From the NCBI GenBank assembly GCA_021851145.1, contig JAJZJK010000003.1:1-43985 (forward strand): a stretch of DNA of 43,985 nucleotides. The letters run 5' to 3'. The notes below the pieces were generated by a model. That model was not told the origin of the DNA and searched no databases. It worked only from the letters and a program-made list of their open reading frames with translations. The translations under genes were made by a program, and so were the position numbers. Positions within the stretch are counted from its first letter, which is position 1. Each line of letters starts with the position of its first letter. Origin of the DNA: Nanobdellota archaeon. GTDB lineage: Archaea > Nanobdellota > Nanobdellia > Parvarchaeales > Parvarchaeaceae. Shown here in pieces: positions 8,279 to 38,074 of the stretch.

Positions 8279-8393
8279 TCTAGCAACTGCTAAAAACTTA
8301 TTAAAGAATAGAACTTATATTTAAATCTTTATTCGCCCTTGCAGCTTATTTTATAAGACTGTCTTATTTTTGTAGATAAAGATTTTAAAGCCT

Positions 8394-8505
8394 TGGGGTT
8401 GCCAGGATTTGAACCTGGGTCAAGCGGTTTCTTCTTAATCATCCTTAACGTCATGTTTCCAGACAAGCTGGAGCCGCCTATTCTGCCTGGTTAGACTACA
8501 ACCCC
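8394..8505 (-). tRNA. trnW: tRNA-Trp(CCA) with 39-nt intron at 37/38
   Basis: GGGGTTG/CAACCCC acceptor stem, GGCGG-CTCCAG|intron|A-CCGCT anticodon arm, CCAGG-TTCAAAT-CCTGG T arm; CCA end not encoded. Confidence 0.95.
8429..8467 (-). other. tRNA-Trp intron (relaxed BHB; candidate minimal box C/D guide RNA)
   Basis: CTTGTCTGGAAACATGACGTTAAGGATGATTAAGAAGAA; bulges AG|C and AA|A around a CTCC/GAAG helix with one mismatch. Confidence 0.85.
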
Positions 8506-9036
8506 TTAGGTGAATATTTTATACTTATCCTTATTCTCAAGTTCTTCTTCTATCCTATTTTCTATGCTTTTAGCTATGCCCGAAGTAAAGCCGACTCTCT
8601 CATCAAAATCGCTATATGATTTAAATTCGCCTTTGCTACGTTCTTCCATTATTTTTTGAACCATTTTTTTACCTGCGCCAGGTATAAGCGCCAATGAATG
8701 CAATCTTACATTTATTGGCCCTAATCTGTTTATTATGTTTATGTAATTTGTTTCGTTTTCCAATACAATATCATGTATTTTATCCGCAAGCATTTGTAAG
8801 CCATTTCCGTTTAATTTGTCAGGAGTAATCCTCTGTATAATATGGTGTACCTCTTCCCTTTTATTTTCTCCAATGTAAACTTTCATTCCAGGGTCCACTT
8901 TCACGTCTTTTTTGAGTGCTACCAACAAGAGGCCTAATGAATCAGTAAGCACTATAGCAGTAGCCTTTCTATCTTTTGAGTCTTGCAGCCCAAAAGGAAG
9001 GTATTCTAAAACATAAGCATATTCATCTTTTCCCAT
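8506..9036 (-). CDS. DUF655 family putative RNA-binding protein
   Basis: DEYAYVLEYLP, RLHSLALIPGAGKK HhH motif; conserved rpl21e-rpo4-DUF655 order. Confidence 0.92.
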   Translation of the reverse strand: MGKDEYAYVLEYLPFGLQDSKDRKATAIVLTDSLGLLLVALKKDVKVDPGMKVYIGENKREEVHHIIQRITPDKLNGNGLQMLADKIHDIVLENETNYINIINRLGPINVRLHSLALIPGAGKKMVQKIMEERSKGEFKSYSDFDERVGFTSGIAKSIENRIEEELENKDKYKIFT

Positions 9037-9058
9037 AGTATAAGGAGTAATTTAAACG

Positions 9059-9388
9059 TTATAAATGCTTTTTCAGCACTGCTAGAACGGCCTTTAAATC
9101 CTCTTCTTTTACGTTTAACTTTAATGGAGATATAACTGCCCTTATCTGATCAGAAGAAGTCGGTGATACGTCGATAATCATCCTTATATAATCGTCTCTT
9201 ATGTTAAGGTTAAGTCCGGATATCTCTTCGAATACGCTGTCAAAGTTGTCTATTTTTATGTTCTTTTGAACGTGGTCTATAAGCTTTTTACCCATTTCTG
9301 AACCCTTATCTACAAAATCCAAGTATTTCTCCTTAACTTCTGTTTCGCTCAAAAACTTTTCATCTATTATTTCGTATTCCATTTTCAA
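9059..9388 (-). CDS. rpo4: RNA polymerase subunit Rpo4 (RpoF)
   Basis: IIDEKFLS..EVK and IIDVSP...QIRAV pattern; synteny. Confidence 0.85.
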   Translation of the reverse strand: MKMEYEIIDEKFLSETEVKEKYLDFVDKGSEMGKKLIDHVQKNIKIDNFDSVFEEISGLNLNIRDDYIRMIIDVSPTSSDQIRAVISPLKLNVKEEDLKAVLAVLKKHL

Positions 9389-9678
9389 AGCCTCTTCATA
9401 TGAACTGGTAAAAGATCTATTCTTTTAAGACTTTTACCCTGTTGTTTTACTTCTACCGTATAGGCTTTACCTTTCTTTTCTATTATTTTACCAACTGAAC
9501 CGAAAAAACTCCTTTGGGGCAAATTCCTTTGAATCCTTGAATCAGGATCTACTATTATTTTATCCCCTACCTCAAAGGACTGCAATGCCTTCTTTATGTT
9601 TACTTTTCCTCTTTCTTTTATATCTAGCTTCAATCTCTTCCTTGAACGCTTGTGCAAACCATTTCCCGTTATTGACAT
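9385..9678 (-). CDS. rpl21e: 50S ribosomal protein L21e
   Basis: RSRKRL..RERGK, FEVGDKI, FFGSVGKI, PVHMK. Confidence 0.95.
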   Translation of the reverse strand: MSITGNGLHKRSRKRLKLDIKERGKVNIKKALQSFEVGDKIIVDPDSRIQRNLPQRSFFGSVGKIIEKKGKAYTVEVKQQGKSLKRIDLLPVHMKRL

Positions 9679-9727
9679 AATTCTATTTTATAAAGCCCCT
9701 TAGTATTTATACTTTTTTAATCGCATA

Positions 9728-9810
9728 TGCAGAGGGAGGGATTTGAACCCTCGAAGGCCTAAGCCATAAGGTCCTTAGCCTTACACGTTTGACCGCTTCG
9801 CTACCTCTGC
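9728..9810 (-). tRNA. trnL: tRNA-Leu with anticodon AAG (A34)
   Basis: GCAGAGG/CCTCTGC acceptor stem, TAAGG-CT AAG GA-CCTTA anticodon arm, long variable arm GGC-TTAG-GCC, A73. Confidence 0.93.
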
Positions 9811-9906
9811 ATCATAGTTTAAAAAGGGCTTATAATAAAACGCTTACTATTCATAATCTATTTATACTATAAAAATTGATTTATACACTTAAAACGATTT
9901 AAAACT

Positions 9907-11067
9907 ATGGTATTTAACATAATAATAGAGATTCTAATAGTATTAGCGAGTTCAATAATTATTGGAGAGCTATTTGAACAGCTTAAATTTCCTTCTGTTG
10001 TTGGTTACCTTATTGCAGGATTAATTATAGGGCCTTTTGTCTTTAATTTCATCCAGAATAACTTGGAATTGCAGGCTTTGTCATCAATTTCTCTTTTCTT
10101 TATAATATTTTTATTGGGAATCGAAATGAAAACAGAGTTGGTTATAAAATACCTTAAACCCTCGCTAAAAATGTCTGTTACTAGTTTTATTTTGCCTTTG
10201 CTTTTGTCTGTTTTACTTTCCGTTGTTTTACTGCACTTTGGATTGAGGCAAGACTTTATAGTTTCTTTGGCAATAGCAGTGCCATCTATATCAATAGTAT
10301 CTGTTCTTGTTATGAGATATAGACTCGCAAGAGACCCAAAAGGGGTAACAATAATAGGGTCAGTAGTAATAACGGATGTAATCGCATTTTTACTTTTGGG
10401 GATAACCTACAAAAGCGCATTAAATGCAATATTACTGGTTGTATACTTCGTAATTTTCCTTATGGTGTTTTTAAATGTGGATAAAATTCTGAATAGGGGG
10501 AGCGAAAAATTAAGAAAGCAACTAACAAAATCTAAAAAACTATTAAAAAGTGAACATTTTGGTTATGCAATGATAATAATCATAGGGCTATTAACTGGCG
10601 GTATATCCCAGTTAATAGGCGTAAACTATATAATAGGAGTTTTCTTTGCAGGATTAATCATACATGAAGGGTTGATAGGCAAGACCTTATTCAGAAAGGT
10701 TAGCAAAACAATAAAAAGGATGAATGATGGATTTTTTATACCTATTTTCTTTGGGATAGCAGGGATTGATGTCTCTTCATTTCATTCTCTTGAAATTTAT
10801 ATGCCTGCAATAATTACAATATCTGTCTTGGTTATTGTCTTCTCAATATTACTAAATTTCTTTTATTCCAAGAAGGCAATGAATGCAAAGACAAATAAAT
10901 GGAGAATAAAAATAAGTGCAATAATAAATGGAAGAGGCGCAGTGGGCATAGCAATTGCTACAGTTGCATTCGAGATAGGGGTTATAACTAACTCTGCTTA
11001 CTCTGTAGCAATACTGGCAACTATAATTATATCAATAATCGCAACATCACTTCTTAGAAATACCTAA
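9907..11067 (+). CDS. Cation:proton antiporter (CPA2 / KefB-like)
   Basis: PSVVGYLIAGLIIGP, VITDV, FFIPIFF, GRGAVG; about 12 TM segments. Confidence 0.9.
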   Translation: MVFNIIIEILIVLASSIIIGELFEQLKFPSVVGYLIAGLIIGPFVFNFIQNNLELQALSSISLFFIIFLLGIEMKTELVIKYLKPSLKMSVTSFILPLLLSVLLSVVLLHFGLRQDFIVSLAIAVPSISIVSVLVMRYRLARDPKGVTIIGSVVITDVIAFLLLGITYKSALNAILLVVYFVIFLMVFLNVDKILNRGSEKLRKQLTKSKKLLKSEHFGYAMIIIIGLLTGGISQLIGVNYIIGVFFAGLIIHEGLIGKTLFRKVSKTIKRMNDGFFIPIFFGIAGIDVSSFHSLEIYMPAIITISVLVIVFSILLNFFYSKKAMNAKTNKWRIKISAIINGRGAVGIAIATVAFEIGVITNSAYSVAILATIIISIIATSLLRNT

Positions 11068-11185
11068 AAATAATTATACAACTGAAATTTAAACATAAAA
11101 GCCTTGCTTTTCCTGAATATTGAAGTTTAGAGTCTTTTATAATCCAGTTTTATTTATAAATATATTCAAATAGATAGTATCAAAT

Positions 11186-11458
11186 ATGAGAATATCGGTT
11201 AATAATTTGGTTAATTATTATAAATCAATGATAAAACGTATAGATAATAACGCCATATTAACTTTTTACACGTATAAAAAAGACAGAGGTTTTTCAGTTA
11301 AGAAAGATAATGGCAAGTTACTAATTTCGGAATTTGGCTTTAAAAATCAGAATTTGTGTGTAGAAGAAAAAGATTCGGTAAAAATAATTAAAGGCATAAC
11401 AAAATTAGAGTTTCCAAGAAGTCACGAGATCTTTGTTAGCACCCACAATGAAAATTAA
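11186..11458 (+). CDS. Small hypothetical protein
   Basis: 90-aa ORF with TATA-like box about 25-30 nt upstream; TYKKDR...EFPRS. Confidence 0.6.
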   Translation: MRISVNNLVNYYKSMIKRIDNNAILTFYTYKKDRGFSVKKDNGKLLISEFGFKNQNLCVEEKDSVKIIKGITKLEFPRSHEIFVSTHNEN

Positions 11459-11624
11459 TTATGTATGTGTTAGTATCTTTTTAGAGTGCTTAATTCTCGT
11501 TATTAAACTAAAAGAATTTGTAATACTCACTGATTTAATGTGATATTTTCTCTATTTGAGTCTCTGTTTTAATTATTCAATAAAAGCCATTTTTGAGCAT
11601 ATTAACTTCCTTACTATTATTATT

Positions 11625-11698
11625 TGGGGTGGCTGGGATTTGAACCCAGGTCAACTAACCCCCGAAGCTAGCATCATACCAAGCTAGATCACCACCCC
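11625..11698 (-). tRNA. trnP: tRNA-Pro(CGG)
   Basis: GGGGTGG/CCACCCC acceptor stem; CTAGC-TT CGG GG-GTTAG; CTGGG-TTCAAAT-CCCAG. Confidence 0.95.
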
Positions 11699-11722
11699 TT
11701 TTCAAATAACTAATATACGGTT

Positions 11723-12733
11723 CTAATTAATCTTTTTGTACTGTGGATATGTGCCCAAACTCATTATTACGCTATCTGTTTTAACAGCTATTCCTTTTTT
11801 AAAGATCTTTATTTCCTCTGCTGACAATACAGATCTGCCAAGTGCTATCAATTCACCTTTCAATGTCATTATCCCCACTACTTCATCTTTTTCGAAATTA
11901 GTGAATTTAACTATACCGGGGACAGCAAGAGGTGAACCATGACAGATTGGATCTACTGCCCCATCAGAGATGAAAAGCTTTGGCAAAAAGTCTACCGCTG
12001 ACTCTATGCTGCCTAAACATTTGTTCAATAGTCTATCATCGTTTTCTTTTTCATAAAAATAAACCGCATCCTCTAAATCCTGTAATGTAACTAAATTATC
12101 TTTTTCTGATAATGTTGAAACCTTTGTTCTTCTTAATTCAGTCATGTGCGCACCTATTTTTAACTCTTCCCCCATGTCGTGTATAAGCTTCCTTATGTAT
12201 GTTCCAGATTCTACTCCAACTTTAAAAAGAACATCCTTCCCATTTATTTCTAATATATTAGAATAATAGATTTCTCTCTCCCTATACTGCCGCTTAACAT
12301 GAGACCTGACCGGCGGAAGTTGCATTATTTTTCCTATAAATTTGTTGAACGTATCTCTAAGTAATTGCTCATCAACTTCACTATGCAGATGCATCAGAGC
12401 TATGTATTCCTTTCCTCCAAAAAGAAGCACTGGGAGAACCTTTGTAGCGTTATTTATAGCTAATGGCAAAAGACCAGTTACGTTGGGATTTCTTCAATGT
12501 TCTAAAGTCCCTGAGTAACCCATCTTCTTTGCACCTAATACGGCCATAAGATTCTTGGCTATGTAGGCTGCGGTTTTAGACCTTATACCTGCTGGCTTAT
12601 CCAAAAGTACAAAACCGTAGTTTATCCTCTCCGGTATACTTCTATCCTTTGGAGCTTTACCGTATCTGCTGTCGGTTTCTTCCTCTCTCAAGGAAAAAAT
12701 TTCATGCTTGAAATCCTCCAAAGGCAGTTTCAT
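11723..12733 (-). CDS. cbf5: Cbf5 (TruB family) RNA-guided pseudouridine synthase, intron-containing: join(12733..12502,12489..11723), 332 aa
   Basis: Exon 1: GFVLLDKPAG...GYSGTL; exon 2: PNVTGLLP, KEY, QLPPVRSHVKR, SGTYIRKL.HD.G, HMTELRRT and PUA domain; removing 12 nt restores the catalytic TLDP. Confidence 0.93.
12490..12501 (-). other. 12-nt archaeal BHB/BHL-type mRNA intron in cbf5
   Basis: GGGA-CTTT-AG|AACATT-GAAG-AA|A-TCCC: GGGA/TCCC outer helix, CTTT/GAAG 4-bp central helix, AAA bulge; contains in-frame TGA; splits the Asp codon G|AT. Confidence 0.88.
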
Positions 12734-13395: not shown

Positions 13396-16300
13396 TTAAT
13401 TAATAGGTGTATTATTTATAAGTTTACTGTAGTTTCCAAATGCAGCCGGTAAATAACTAAGATTATCACAGTAATTCTGTGCTGAAGGTGAAACTGAACA
13501 TTCTCCAGTAAGCATGTATTTACTTAATGCAGTATAATTTATCTTATAAACATTTACATTTGTAATTACTTGATTTTCTATGCTTAAAAGCGAGTTAACT
13601 GGCAAGTTATCGCTGTATAACAATGTGAATCCAGGAACGCTTTCATTTAGTAAGTAAAGCTTGTCAAATAGTGTATTAAGAGTTTCATTTGGCATATACA
13701 GCAAAGCGGGTTGATTTCCAAACTGTGACATGTTTATTGGAAGTACTTCATAACCACCAGGTGCTTGAGTATAACCTCCAATGTGAAGATTTACTTCATT
13801 TGTGGCATTCAAAAGCATCATTCCACCAGGAATACCACTGTTTGTAACTTCTTTACAGCCTACACTATACACACAATTGTAATCCAATGGTAATGGGGAT
13901 GAAAATTGATCTGTAAGTTCATTATAGATTATACCATAAGGATTACCCATACTTGTAATTGTGCCAGTACTACTTGCATTTAGTGGTATTACTACCTCTA
14001 CAAGAAGGTCATTGTTTGCATTACCTGGCAAGCTGCTTATTGTCGTATTTGAATAAAGCGGTGAAATTTGACCATTCACATCTCCGAATTCCAGCAGGTA
14101 TTTGTAGCTTTCATTTCCTATATTTTGGCTATTTACAGTAACATTGTTTTCTGTCATAGGCGTAAAAGAGGTTGGTTCCAACGCTATAGTTGAGATTGCA
14201 GAGAATTTCTCCACCTCACTACCGCTTATTACCGCGTAGGTAGGCTCATGAATAAAATGCAAGTATGTGGAATAAACGTAAGGGGAGGTTGATTCGAAAA
14301 AGTACTTAGCTATCATAGACTGATAGCCATACGCATTACTTCCATCTGCTACAGCAGTTCTATTTGCTATTGCTTCTTCCCAGTAACCATAATCCCACCA
14401 AGAGATTATTGAGGTGTTAACAGGCGTATTCTGGCTGATCCACTGCATTGTAGGCCCCCATAACAATAAACCGCTTCCACTTGACTGTGCAGTTTGATAA
14501 GACAAAGAGAGACTAGAGTTAAGATCTGCTGCAACGAAAGCAATTGCTATTATTATAATAATTGCTGAAACAATCATCATATTCTTAGGTGAATTCTTAA
14601 AGAATCTATTTGTTAAGTTTATAGACCCCTTAAAGAAATAAACTATTGCAAAAGGTATTATTATCGCAGCACCCAACTCTGTAGGCTCCAATAATCTGCT
14701 TTCAACATTTGAAAGTATAACTGTAGCTACAAAGAAAAATAAAGGAATTATAGCAAGTAAAGATATCAAGTTTACATCCTCCTGTTTATCAAATGCAAAC
14801 TCCAGTATAAGTATGACTGCAAGAGCTACTGCCCCATATTTATAATTATTTGCTGAGGAGTTCATTGTCCATATGACAATAAGCATTATCAATGAGATTA
14901 ACGTGAGAAACAGAACCACACTTAACAATCTTTTTGATTCTATTTCATTTTTATGCAAAAATAGGTAACCTAAAGGTATGAAATCCAGAGCTATGAATAT
15001 AAACAGAAACGAATAAGAAGTAGCATTATAACTAAATGTGCCCCCATTTAGCATTAACAGGAATGGCACACTTAACAAGAAAGGAATATACCAGTGCTTA
15101 AATCGTTTTAGTACAATATAAAGAAGGAAAACTGCACCAGCACAGAACAAAAGGAAATTTATGCCTATAGAACCCACAAGAAAGTTAAAGTCTTGCACCC
15201 TTTGTGTCAAATCTAGAGGAGCATATTCTGCAATAGTTTGGGTTACAGGATTTACAATACCTACTCCCAATGGATGAATAAATTCAGATGAAACGCTTGA
15301 TAAGGCATGCTTTAATGTATTTAAACCAGTAAGTGCAACTACAACAAAAGATATTATTATACTGTATATTGCTATTGAAAAACCATTATTTATGAGAGGT
15401 ATTTTAAGTTTATGTTTGTAACGATCATATATTATTAATTTGAATAGAACTAGAACGTAAGCAAACAACATAGGGTAATAAAGAGCGCTATGTATAACAT
15501 CCGAGAATGTAAAGGTTACGAAGCTAACTTTTATTGGAATCCATATTGCAAACAAGATATAAGCAAATAAGTCTCCCTTTTTAGCATATCCAAGTAAAAT
15601 GATTATTATATAGATAACTGGAATTAAAAGAATTAAGTATTCACTATAACCGCTTGCGGCAGTTGCTAAACCTGTAGCTATCCCTGTTGCTAGCCCGTAA
15701 ATCATTTTACTCCTTGTCCTTTTGGACTTAAGAGACTTCGATAGGAAGAATATTGCTAGTAATATAAACATAAAACCTAGAGAGGTCTTCTGAGTAAAAC
15801 CTGCAGTAGAACGACTTAAGAAGGTAAGAAAGGCAGGCAAGATAAATGCACTTATACTTGCCATCCAGTAATCACCAAACAACTCTAAAACTATAAGGAA
15901 AAGAAGTAAAGCCGAGAATATTGCAAAAACAGCAGGCAAAAACATAAAAGAAGTCATAGGTACTGCGCCTTTTACTATTGGATCTATAAGCCTTGCAGAG
16001 TATGCTCCGAAGAAGGATACCATAAGCTCATCAGTCCTAGAAGGCAAACCTATCGGCAAGTACTCTAAATAATTTACTGCTGGAACGTTCCCAGTCTTAA
16101 GAACATTCTGCATTTGTATATAAAATGTATATGGGTCTAAACCAGAAAGGGAACCCCCCATACCCAAATAATTATTTCCTATTAATGGCGAATTTGACTG
16201 CAAAGGGTTTAACAATGCAGGAACGCTTGCAACATGTACGTACCAGCCAATTGTTACGGCAAGTATAAGAATCAAGTAAAAAAGAACCTTCTTCTTTATA

Positions 16301-16572
16301 AGTATATTATAAGCAGCATTGCCAAAGGTTTTGAAACCCGCTAGATTTAATTCTATTTCAACTTCACTTACTTTTTTCTTAGAAGCTTCTTCCTTTACGT
16401 TCTCCAGCTTTTGGGCCTCTTCTCTTAAACTTTTTAACTTTTCCTCTTCTGTCTTGATGTCTGTCTCTTCTTTTTTTATTTGAATTTCTTCCTTTTTTAT
16501 CTCTTGTTCTACCTTCCTTTCATCCTTGGAAGCTTCTTCTTTTATTCTCTTAAGTTCATCATCTTCGGCCAT
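13396..16572 (-). CDS. aglB: Oligosaccharyltransferase AglB (STT3)
   Basis: SWWDYGYW, GLDPY, TIAEY, RTAVADG; multiple TM segments. Confidence 0.95.
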   Translation of the reverse strand: MAEDDELKRIKEEASKDERKVEQEIKKEEIQIKKEETDIKTEEEKLKSLREEAQKLENVKEEASKKKVSEVEIELNLAGFKTFGNAAYNILIKKKVLFYLILILAVTIGWYVHVASVPALLNPLQSNSPLIGNNYLGMGGSLSGLDPYTFYIQMQNVLKTGNVPAVNYLEYLPIGLPSRTDELMVSFFGAYSARLIDPIVKGAVPMTSFMFLPAVFAIFSALLLFLIVLELFGDYWMASISAFILPAFLTFLSRSTAGFTQKTSLGFMFILLAIFFLSKSLKSKRTRSKMIYGLATGIATGLATAASGYSEYLILLIPVIYIIIILLGYAKKGDLFAYILFAIWIPIKVSFVTFTFSDVIHSALYYPMLFAYVLVLFKLIIYDRYKHKLKIPLINNGFSIAIYSIIISFVVVALTGLNTLKHALSSVSSEFIHPLGVGIVNPVTQTIAEYAPLDLTQRVQDFNFLVGSIGINFLLFCAGAVFLLYIVLKRFKHWYIPFLLSVPFLLMLNGGTFSYNATSYSFLFIFIALDFIPLGYLFLHKNEIESKRLLSVVLFLTLISLIMLIVIWTMNSSANNYKYGAVALAVILILEFAFDKQEDVNLISLLAIIPLFFFVATVILSNVESRLLEPTELGAAIIIPFAIVYFFKGSINLTNRFFKNSPKNMMIVSAIIIIIAIAFVAADLNSSLSLSYQTAQSSGSGLLLWGPTMQWISQNTPVNTSIISWWDYGYWEEAIANRTAVADGSNAYGYQSMIAKYFFESTSPYVYSTYLHFIHEPTYAVISGSEVEKFSAISTIALEPTSFTPMTENNVTVNSQNIGNESYKYLLEFGDVNGQISPLYSNTTISSLPGNANNDLLVEVVIPLNASSTGTITSMGNPYGIIYNELTDQFSSPLPLDYNCVYSVGCKEVTNSGIPGGMMLLNATNEVNLHIGGYTQAPGGYEVLPINMSQFGNQPALLYMPNETLNTLFDKLYLLNESVPGFTLLYSDNLPVNSLLSIENQVITNVNVYKINYTALSKYMLTGECSVSPSAQNYCDNLSYLPAAFGNYSKLINNTPIN

Positions 16573-30018: not shown

Positions 30019-32196
30019 ATGGGAAGTCAAATGCTTGAGGAAATAATAAAAAAAGATAATAATTCTTATTCTAAATTAAGGCTTCTTACTATGTCAGAGT
30101 TAGAACTTGCAACAAAACTAAGTGACAAACAGGTACTAGATAATTTAGGGCAGATGATAAAAGATTATGAAGGTAAAATTGACGGTATAGTCATAAATGG
30201 GGGCCTGGCATATATACCTGACAAATATAGCAGATTAAGAGGGGAGAGATTAGATTTAGTAGAGGACATGCTAAAAGAGAAATATGGAGAAGAAGCTTAT
30301 AATGAAATAAAACGTGGAAAAAATGACTCTAATTCTGTTGATGATTTAACTGAAGCCGCAATACTTGCAAGAATACAGATGAAAAGCATTGCTTATGAAG
30401 CTAAGAAAAAAGGAGTACCTATTTATTATATTTATGGGGTTACAGACTACAAAAACGTAAAAATGATCATAGAAGCATTGGAAAGGCTTAGCAGAAGAAA
30501 TAACAGAGAAGAAGAGAGAGTTAGAGAAACGAAAAAGAATAAAAAACAAAACAAACTTGAAGATAAAGTGCCAGATGAGATAGAAAGAATAATGTCTATT
30601 ATCCCTGATAGCTATAAATTTAAGGCCTCTAAATGGAAAACGTCAGATAAACAAGGTATAAAAGATAAAGCTAATGACATCTACTTGCACCTTATAAATA
30701 TGATGCTAAATCCTGGTAAAAACCAAGATAACATAAAAGTATACAAAAAATTTGAAAATTTCATTGGAGACAAAGAGAGTAATGAACCTGATGCAGAAAT
30801 AACAATAAATGGTGTTAAGGTAAAAGTATTCCACGCTATTAATGCTCTTACTGCTGGATTAAACGAAGGAAAACCTAGCGACAGAACAATAAACATGATA
30901 GTAGATTATACAAATTTAGATGCTCAGTATGGAAGACTTGCGGATATTTATATAACTGGAAGAGGATCCGCAACGGAATTTACAGCGTTAGATTACCAAA
31001 GCAGGAAAGAGCCTGTATTGATATTTAACCAAGGTCCTTTAATGGATATAGACAGACAATTTAAACTAAGAGCAAGCCTTAATAAGACGGATGTATCCAA
31101 AAGGTTATCGCAATTTGAAGATAGCGGGGTCTCTTTCTTATCGGTTTACAATGATAATACTGTTGAGATAGAACATTTAGATGTAAGTGGCATAAAAAAC
31201 AAGATAAATCCTTCCAAACTAAATAAAGAAAAACAGAATGGATCGCTTTATGAAGTGGTTCAAGCATCGGATTGGCATGTTGGAAACGCCGCCTCAGATT
31301 ATGAAGCAATGGAAGAAGTACCTAAAATAATTAGCAAAAGTGATGTTCCTAAAGAGAAAAGAGTACTTTTCGTGGGTGGAGACATGGTTGATGGCGGAAA
31401 TGATAAAGCACAAAGGACAAAGATGTCACTACCCAGAGCACCAAGTCCAGAAGAATTTGTAGGAAAACTTGAGGATATTTTAAAGGATGACAACAAAGAA
31501 AATACAAAAACCAAGTTTATCTCTGAATTGCACAAAGTAGTCTATGGAAATTCAGATATAGACTTAGGCCAGCAGGAAAAAAGACTCGATAATTACCTAA
31601 AACCACTGGCACCACTATTTGACAAAGCATATGTAGTAGGTGGAAACCATTTTGAAAGGGCAACTGGTAATGGGAGCGAAGGCAGAATGATTGGGCCTAA
31701 ACTTGAAAATGGTGGTACAAACGAAGTAGTTTATGTAGATGATTACTTATTGAGGGGAGAAACGCCTTACCTCGGAGATTATGGTTTATTGATGATGCAT
31801 AGCGCAGGTTATAGAGGCGGGGTAGATGCAAGAACCTCTCTAATGAACACTATAAAAAACACTGGATCGGATCTTATAGACTTGGGGATGGCTGGAGATT
31901 GCCATGAACCTGGAATAAAATTTGCCTTAAAGAAAAAGAATGGTGAATGGAGGACTATGGCTACAATTACAACTCCCGCGCTTGAAGGTGAAACTTACTT
32001 TGAAAAATATATAATCCATAAACCAAATTATACCAAAGGCATAAGTGAAATTTATATACCTACAGATAGCACAATAGGAACATCGTATTTAAAGTACAAA
32101 CTAATTCCGCTACAAACAATAAGAGATGAAATATATGCATCAGGAGGGTCAAGGTACTACAAAGCATTGGATAAGATATTAAACAAACTTGATTAA
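30019..32196 (+). CDS. Large calcineurin-like metallophosphoesterase (intact C-terminal domain, degenerate N-terminal copy)
   Basis: C-terminal SDWHVG, GGDMVDG, GGNHFE, MHSAG, GDCH; upstream AGGGGG ribosome-binding-like site. Confidence 0.72.
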   Translation: MGSQMLEEIIKKDNNSYSKLRLLTMSELELATKLSDKQVLDNLGQMIKDYEGKIDGIVINGGLAYIPDKYSRLRGERLDLVEDMLKEKYGEEAYNEIKRGKNDSNSVDDLTEAAILARIQMKSIAYEAKKKGVPIYYIYGVTDYKNVKMIIEALERLSRRNNREEERVRETKKNKKQNKLEDKVPDEIERIMSIIPDSYKFKASKWKTSDKQGIKDKANDIYLHLINMMLNPGKNQDNIKVYKKFENFIGDKESNEPDAEITINGVKVKVFHAINALTAGLNEGKPSDRTINMIVDYTNLDAQYGRLADIYITGRGSATEFTALDYQSRKEPVLIFNQGPLMDIDRQFKLRASLNKTDVSKRLSQFEDSGVSFLSVYNDNTVEIEHLDVSGIKNKINPSKLNKEKQNGSLYEVVQASDWHVGNAASDYEAMEEVPKIISKSDVPKEKRVLFVGGDMVDGGNDKAQRTKMSLPRAPSPEEFVGKLEDILKDDNKENTKTKFISELHKVVYGNSDIDLGQQEKRLDNYLKPLAPLFDKAYVVGGNHFERATGNGSEGRMIGPKLENGGTNEVVYVDDYLLRGETPYLGDYGLLMMHSAGYRGGVDARTSLMNTIKNTGSDLIDLGMAGDCHEPGIKFALKKKNGEWRTMATITTPALEGETYFEKYIIHKPNYTKGISEIYIPTDSTIGTSYLKYKLIPLQTIRDEIYASGGSRYYKALDKILNKLD

Positions 32197-37880: not shown

Positions 37881-37980
37881 GTTTACACCTCACAACTTAA
37901 TTTTAATCCTATAAGAAGATAAGCAAATTTTAGTATTTAAGTTTATCATTATTGATGTTAATGCAATTTTGCAATAAATA

Positions 37981-38063
37981 TGCAGAGGGAGGGATTTGAA
38001 CCCTCGAAGGCCTAAGCCATAAGGTCCTAAGCCTTACACGTTTGACCGCTTCGTTACCTCTGC
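37981..38063 (-). tRNA. trnL: tRNA-Leu(UAG)
   Basis: TAAGG-CT TAG GA-CCTTA; 81 of 83 nt identical to 9728..9810. Confidence 0.95.
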
Positions 38064-38074
38064 AATAACTATTT

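Follow-up and report, generated by a model that had tools for sequence, protein, structure and literature searches.

Does an archaeon carry a functional tRNA with adenosine at the wobble position, and how would such a tRNA read the codons of its box? The accessible parts of two recent accounts state that archaea lack A34 tRNAs (PMC11066159, PMC8879553). The window analyzed here, a stretch of 43,985 nucleotides forming positions 1 to 43,985 of contig JAJZJK010000003.1 from a Nanobdellota archaeon of the Parvarchaeaceae, contains a gene for tRNA-Leu with the anticodon AAG (Table 1).

ARAGORN identified five tRNA genes in the window, including tRNA-Leu(aag) at 9727..9811 (-) and tRNA-Leu(tag) at 37980..38064 (-). 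With the Rfam model RF00005 (gathering score 29), Leu(AAG) scored 58.3 bits and Leu(UAG) 60.7 bits. The variable region of Leu(AAG) is 13 nt long and stem-forming, and an A follows the acceptor stem at the 3' end; a long variable arm and discriminator A73 are identity elements of tRNA-Leu. The anticodon loop is C-U-A-A-G-G-A. A preliminary description of the window had stated that the gene differs from its Leu(UAG) counterpart only at positions 34 and 10, and our direct comparison agrees. Both genes are 83 nt long, with G in the AAG copy (window position 9801) and A in the UAG copy at linear position 10, and A and U, respectively, at linear position 35 (position 34 in tRNA numbering). Elsewhere in the window, the ORFs at 13396-16572 (-) (1058 aa) and 30019-32196 (+) (725 aa) matched no Pfam family at E ≤ 1e-5.

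Table 1. Features around the tRNA-Leu(AAG) gene and its near-identical isoacceptor (window coordinates)
Feature	Position	Strand	Remarks
tRNA-Leu(AAG)	9728..9810	-	Class II, long variable arm, discriminator A73, CCA not encoded
Anticodon A34-A35-G36 of tRNA-Leu(AAG)	9774..9776	-	A34 corresponds to window base 9776, a T on the plus strand
tRNA-Leu(UAG), near-identical isoacceptor	37981..38063	-	ARAGORN, Rfam, and direct comparison
tRNA-Trp(CCA), intron of ~39-43 nt after the anticodon	8394..8505	-	Rfam; neighbor of Leu(AAG) kept in the genus
tRNA-Pro(CGG)	11625..11698	-	ARAGORN and Rfam; conserved neighbor on the other side of Leu(AAG)
Ribosomal protein L21e gene	9385..9678	-	Directly downstream of Leu(AAG), same strand; Pfam PF01157, 65.8 bits
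Putative A/T-rich TATA-like box	9830..9839	-	~20-29 nt upstream of the tRNA 5' end; inferred from reading the sequence

We examined whether A34 is genuine in public sequencing data and in related genomes. Four public DNA runs, all of mine-drainage or tailings metagenomes, contained contigs over the gene. Two of these runs have identical depths and contigs throughout despite being filed under separate studies and years; they probably represent a single data set deposited twice, and the four runs therefore count as three. None of the runs listed for window positions 8300-11800 was an RNA run. The preliminary description had singled out base 9776 as the one to verify in reads. The contigs of the DNA runs agree with the window, with no variant at base 9776 reaching the listing threshold of 10%, and a 65-nt run contig (9746-9810, depth 467) is identical to the window across the anticodon. 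The identical 83-nt gene is present in 10 other genomes of the genus, and the remaining genomes listed carry it at 95-99% identity. Related genomes had also been proposed as a check, and ARAGORN called Leu(aag) in 30 of 30 genus loci (29 other genomes and the window's own). At these loci, each ~3 kb long, the Trp gene adjoins Leu(AAG) in 19 of 30 and Pro(CGG) was seen in 9 of 30, the latter count being limited because the loci hold only ~1.5 kb on each side. Beyond the genus, a Leu-type AAG pattern was found in 38 of 39 other genomes of the Parvarchaeum family, the exception being G035 (90% complete). Among 16 Leu(AAG) orthologues from nine families, compensatory changes were found in 18 of 25 predicted pairs, and U33-A34-A35-G36-G37 was invariant. 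Conservation, the agreement of the run contigs, covariation, and the invariant anticodon together indicate a functional tRNA under selection. A34 is encoded in the genome itself, and the tRNA-Leu that carries it is functional and inherited vertically; we regard it as very nearly certain that this A34 tRNA is real, conserved, and functional. The reading of A34 as a sequencing or assembly error, or of the gene as a decaying pseudogene, has in its favor nothing but the scarcity of A34 in surveys of archaeal tRNAs and is already refuted by the conservation across genomes, with the independent run contigs, the covariation, the invariant anticodon, and the failure to find a Leu(GAG) substitute also against it.

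The gene was then placed in the decoding set of its genome, an assembly of 587,757 bases in 50 contigs (63% complete) in which ARAGORN found 42 tRNA genes. The Leu tRNAs were AAG, UAG, CAG, UAA, and CAA, and the Pro tRNAs were AGG, UGG, and CGG; neither Leu(GAG) nor Pro(GGG) was found by ARAGORN in this 63% complete genome. G34 tRNAs were present for Val, Gly, Ser, Arg, and Ile. The possibility of a normal Leu(GAG) elsewhere, raised in the preliminary description, found no support in the family either, since a pattern search of the 39 other genomes gave no true Leu(GAG). The G34 pattern matched two genomes, and inspection of the DNA identified both matches as false: the one in G018:C20 is a tRNA-Met intron, and the one in G015:C11 is an intron-bearing tRNA-Gly.

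A second A34 tRNA, tRNA-Pro(AGG), is encoded on contig C8 of the same genome (28822-28896), 32 nt downstream of tRNA-Arg(GCG), and the Pro(AGG) pattern was found in 26 of 40 family genomes, with the window's own included. In G026, a further copy was read as an intron-bearing Pro(AGG), although the ARAGORN label differs. In a sister genus, a tRNA-Ala(AGC) carrying the identity pair G3:U70 was observed at L075:9-81 (G036:C9), in one genome only and at a contig end. A34 was found only in four-fold boxes, namely, Leu CUN and Pro CCN in the window's own genome and Ala GCN in G036; the pattern search detected no other class-I A34 tRNA in the 40 family genomes. These results indicate that Leu(AAG) replaces the usual archaeal Leu(GAG) in the Parvarchaeum (ARMAN-4/5) group and its family, and that Pro(AGG) likewise replaces Pro(GGG) in this lineage. 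The genome also contained duplicate tRNAs: Gln UUG was present three times (C3, C9, and C10), Ser UGA twice (C42 and C43), and an identical intron-bearing Ser CGA on both C32 and C48. Such duplicates on short contigs may mean that the bin mixes strains or contains redundant contigs.

The preliminary description had explained the near identity of the two genes by duplication of Leu(UAG) with a shift of the anticodon, and this explanation was not supported. Leu(AAG) and Leu(UAG) each lie at their own locus, conserved across the genus, and the 100 nt flanking them on either side show 29-33% identity, no more than chance would give in this A+T-rich DNA. In sister genera, Leu isoacceptors are nearly identical within a genome, yet unlike their orthologues. 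The differences between AAG and UAG within a genome compared with those between orthologues numbered 2 versus 12 in G034, 5 versus 19 in G036, and 3 versus 5-8 in G004, counts that include up to two end positions trimmed differently by ARAGORN. The CAG copies of G034 and G036 are as close to AAG as UAG is, and so is the CAA copy of G036. The acceptor, D, variable, and T arms of the Leu isoacceptors of G034 and G036 (L065-L071) are common within each genome and differ from those of other genera. Judged from these sequences, the AAG and UAG copies are alike through concerted evolution of dispersed Leu isoacceptor genes and not through recency. Because copies are homogenized within genomes, the two-base difference is uninformative on age, and for the same reason a tree of Leu tRNAs is uninformative on origin. 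That position 34 is kept distinct despite homogenization is a sign of selection on A34.

A recent duplication of tRNA-Leu(UAG), with a shift of U34 to A34 in the new copy, is accordingly a very improbable source of the AAG gene. The two copies in this genome do differ at only two positions, and AAG and UAG have a common anticodon stem in genera g1, g2, and g3, with a differing CAG copy in g1 and g2. Against recency, however, many species of the genus have the two genes at two distinct loci, AAG is widespread in the family and was seen in at least 20 class families, the flanks are unrelated, and the equal closeness of CAG and CAA to AAG described above points to homogenization. With genes of 83 nt, an ancient origin from UAG and one from GAG are indistinguishable. 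A mutation of G34 to A34 in place was examined by synteny in family f17. In this family, Leu(AAG) adjoins Arg(CCU) in three of eight loci (L091, L045, and L047, from G079, G361, and G349, respectively), and five genomes with Leu(GAG) have no Arg(CCU) neighbor within ~400 nt. In two f17 genomes with Leu(GAG), G112 and G255 (L093 and L098), Arg(CCU) adjoins Leu(CAA) instead.

The preliminary description had pointed out that archaea lack the TadA/ADAT system and had proposed a search for deaminases. The search bore out this statement for the lineage: no TadA/ADAT-type deaminase was found in the window's own genome or in 39 family genomes. The sole CDA-fold gene of the own genome (L031:1489-1968, 159 aa, G000:C21) scored 133.6 bits with the ComEB model and 27.9 bits with the TadA model, whose cut-off is 150, and its PDB match was 2hvv (E = 1.7e-31); on these matches, the gene is assigned to dCMP deaminase. 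With the TadA model NF008113, nothing was found at E ≤ 1e-5 in the 39 family genomes. In G018 (100% complete) and G004 (98% complete), which are the most complete of these genomes, no match to PF00383, PF14437, or PF02137 was detected at E ≤ 1, and PF00962 gave only a chance-level match of 11.7 bits. The distribution of the ComEB-like dCMP deaminase is patchy in the genus, with no match in G018 and G004 and a gene present in G011, G026, G030, and the own genome. G026 alone has a second CDA-fold gene, a cytidine deaminase by its motifs.

TadA-like proteins do occur in the class. The TadA model matched in 72 of 401 class genomes, none above the cut-off (150), and ~55 of the 401 had a match of ≥50 bits. 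The two best, proteins of 141-150 aa scoring 94-99 bits on NF008113, are encoded at L033:1477-1929 (-) in G085 and at L034:53-478 (-) in G069; both genomes belong to other families and carry Leu(AAG). The best PDB match of both proteins is the TadA structure 1wwr; the G085 protein (98.7 bits, 2.6e-30 to 1wwr) looks like a true TadA relative. Wobble inosine may exist in some archaea of the class with TadA-like genes. These genes are not enriched with Leu(AAG), however, which by hand count accompanies 16-17 of the 55 genomes with matches of ≥50 bits, compared with 128-135 of all 401. Archaea also make m1I57, the enzyme for which is, to our knowledge, still unidentified.

Codon use was compared as the C/(U+C) share of each four-fold box. 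Over 501 long ORFs from the window's own genome, Leu CUN had the lowest share, 0.12 (4124 CUU, 560 CUC). The share was 0.17 for Pro and 0.165 for Val, which has a G34 tRNA, and ranged from 0.24 to 0.43 in the other four-fold boxes. When the CUC share was set against five reference boxes, the median logit difference was -0.38 in 20 AAG genomes versus 0.0 in 20 GAG genomes (Mann-Whitney p = 0.04, uncorrected for relatedness and based on 20 kb per genome with crude ORF calls). The genomes with AAG nevertheless retain CUC, at 1-14 per 1000 codons. This weak shift toward U-ending codons fits unmodified adenosine slightly better than inosine. Elp3 was present in all five genus genomes searched, and U34 of Leu(UAG) may thus be modified and restricted to A- and G-ending codons, in which case the reading of CUC would fall on A34 alone. 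According to Table 1 of PMC11066159, AAG and AGG anticodons without modification can read codons ending in C in Escherichia coli; for AGG, this reading is almost as good as that of codons ending in U.

The absence of a detectable TadA-like gene in 39 genomes, together with the lack of all four deaminase families in G018 and G004, favors an A34 that stays unmodified and reads both CUU and CUC, a reading to which we give a probability of roughly 0.6. Unmodified A34 would read CUU through a Watson-Crick pair and the rarer CUC through an A-C wobble pair, and CUA and CUG would be left to tRNA-Leu(UAG) and tRNA-Leu(CAG). Misreading by A34 would do no harm, since in the four-fold boxes CUN and CCN the amino acid is the same whatever the third base. 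Concerted evolution would keep the AAG and UAG copies nearly identical, with selection holding position 34 apart. Several points count against an unmodified A34: CUC remains in use and would be read better by inosine than by adenosine, a modified U34 in Leu(UAG) would put the entire burden of CUC on A34, the codon-use signal is weak, with Val close to Pro, the TadA-like proteins of G085 and G069 are both found in Leu(AAG) genomes, and negative profile searches do not prove the absence of a deaminase.

Alternatively, A34 could be converted to inosine by an enzyme not recognizable as a homologue of TadA or ADAT2, and IAG and IGG would then decode codons ending in U, C, or A, in the manner of eukaryotes. 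G34 isoacceptors are replaced here, not supplemented, a pattern seen wherever I34 is used according to the accessible sections of PMC8879553, and Fujishima et al. saw in it a resemblance to decoding in eukaryotes (PMC3239211). The continued use of CUC and CCC and the TadA-like proteins of some class members, such as that of G085, are also in line with inosine. However, TadA-like genes were found in none of the 39 family genomes and do not track Leu(AAG) across the class, the nearly and fully complete genomes G004 and G018 have no CDA-fold, ADAR-type, or adenosine-deaminase-type match, and the weak shift to U-ending codons is what unmodified adenosine would favor. We therefore consider inosine rather unlikely and retain unmodified A34 as the preferred reading.

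To see how far A34 extends, 401 genomes of the class were searched with patterns. Broader first patterns gave false matches to tRNA-Cys, to tRNA-Trp and tRNA-Met introns, and to tRNA-Gly and tRNA-Ile; their tallies are thus upper bounds, and the pattern was narrowed. A Leu-type AAG anticodon arm was found in at least 128 of the 401 sampled genomes, from at least 20 of at least 92 families, as counted by hand from 150 of 157 matches, with 22 of those listed judged not to be of Leu type. All patterns require a GGTTCRANTCC T-loop and the absence of an intron, so that some genes are missed, and roughly one-half of the 401 genomes have no match to either the A or the G pattern. Among the matches listed, the largest family counts were ~53 of 77 genomes in f17, 9 of 11 in f30, and ~7 of 14 in f21. 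ARAGORN confirmed Leu(AAG) on the DNA of 49 genomes, including all eight f17 loci, which have the loop UUAAGGC; examples of class loci with Leu(AAG) are L045-L052, L054-L056, L058, L059, and L061. A Leu-type GAG was found in ~55 other genomes among the 150 matches listed for the G pattern. Leu(AAG) and Leu(GAG) are essentially exclusive among the matches listed, the only genome in both sets being G380, for which the AAG match is ambiguous.

Searches of the literature on DPANN, Woesearchaeota, and Parvarchaeota for an account of A34 tRNAs across the class found only the 2011 ARMAN paper described below, and the class-wide spread of Leu(AAG) is, as far as these searches show, not in print. A bolder generalization, which we put forward tentatively and think improbable as a whole, would regard A34 tRNAs, rather than as a peculiarity of two ARMAN genomes, as a mode of decoding common to a large radiation of archaea with small genomes. 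About one-third of the 401 genomes have Leu(AAG), mostly without a TadA-like gene, and Pro(AGG) and at least once Ala(AGC) occur as well; either unmodified A34 would then routinely read U- and C-ending codons, or an undescribed kind of A34 deaminase would exist. If true, the former branch would contradict the textbook view of A34 as selected against, and the latter would be the more novel of the two. With Leu(AAG) and Pro(AGG) fixed and no deaminase detectable, the lineage forms a natural test between an unmodified wobble adenosine sustaining a whole proteome and an unknown archaeal wobble deaminase. The class-wide spread, if confirmed by proper tRNA annotation, would change the view that archaea use G34 only.

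For the ARMAN-4/5 lineage itself, the Leu(AAG) oddity was already published in 2011. Fujishima et al. (NAR 39:9695) reported Leu(AAG) and Pro(AGG) in place of the G34 forms in ARMAN-4 and ARMAN-5; the words "deaminase," "inosine," "Tad," and "ADAT" never occur in the main text (PMC3239211). The Leu(AAG) gene of the ARMAN-4 genome is 100% identical to the window gene over 83 nt, and that of ARMAN-5 is 99% identical. Both genomes resemble the window genome in having Pro(AGG) alongside and in lacking the G34 forms, but the window genome is distinct from ARMAN-4, the PheRS beta chains being 80% identical. The 2011 report has been overlooked and has had no mechanistic follow-up, and reviews and surveys up to 2026, in their accessible parts, still state that archaea are without A34 tRNAs and without an A-to-I wobble system.

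Leu(AAG) has one other archaeal occurrence in print, in Ferroplasma acidarmanus fer1, which the preliminary description had named as a rare exception. This statement is correct: in the accessible part of a survey of 167 genomes, Leu(AAG) is listed only for this species (PMC6000648). F. acidarmanus belongs to a different phylum from the window archaeon. Like the window lineage, it comes from acid mine drainage.

Known systems outside the archaea fall on either side of the question. In Lactobacillales (Oenococcus, Leuconostoc, Lactobacillus, and Streptococcus), a bacterial Leu(AAG) replaces Leu(GAG) genus-wide, as it does here, according to the accessible portions of a preprint (10.64898/2026.05.15.725136) and of PMC13249217. 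Those bacteria carry TadA, and at least some are described there as converting A34 to I34, whereas no TadA-like gene was found in the Parvarchaeum family. Thr(AGU) of Mycoplasma and Pro(AGG) of engineered Salmonella and E. coli proL G34A, in the parts of the reports available, are family-box A34 tRNAs that read U- and C-ending codons with no deamination. The window lineage would resemble these latter cases if A34 is unmodified, a state that we infer here; it differs from them in that the trait is natural, is fixed in archaea, and involves both Leu and Pro, with Ala added in one genome.
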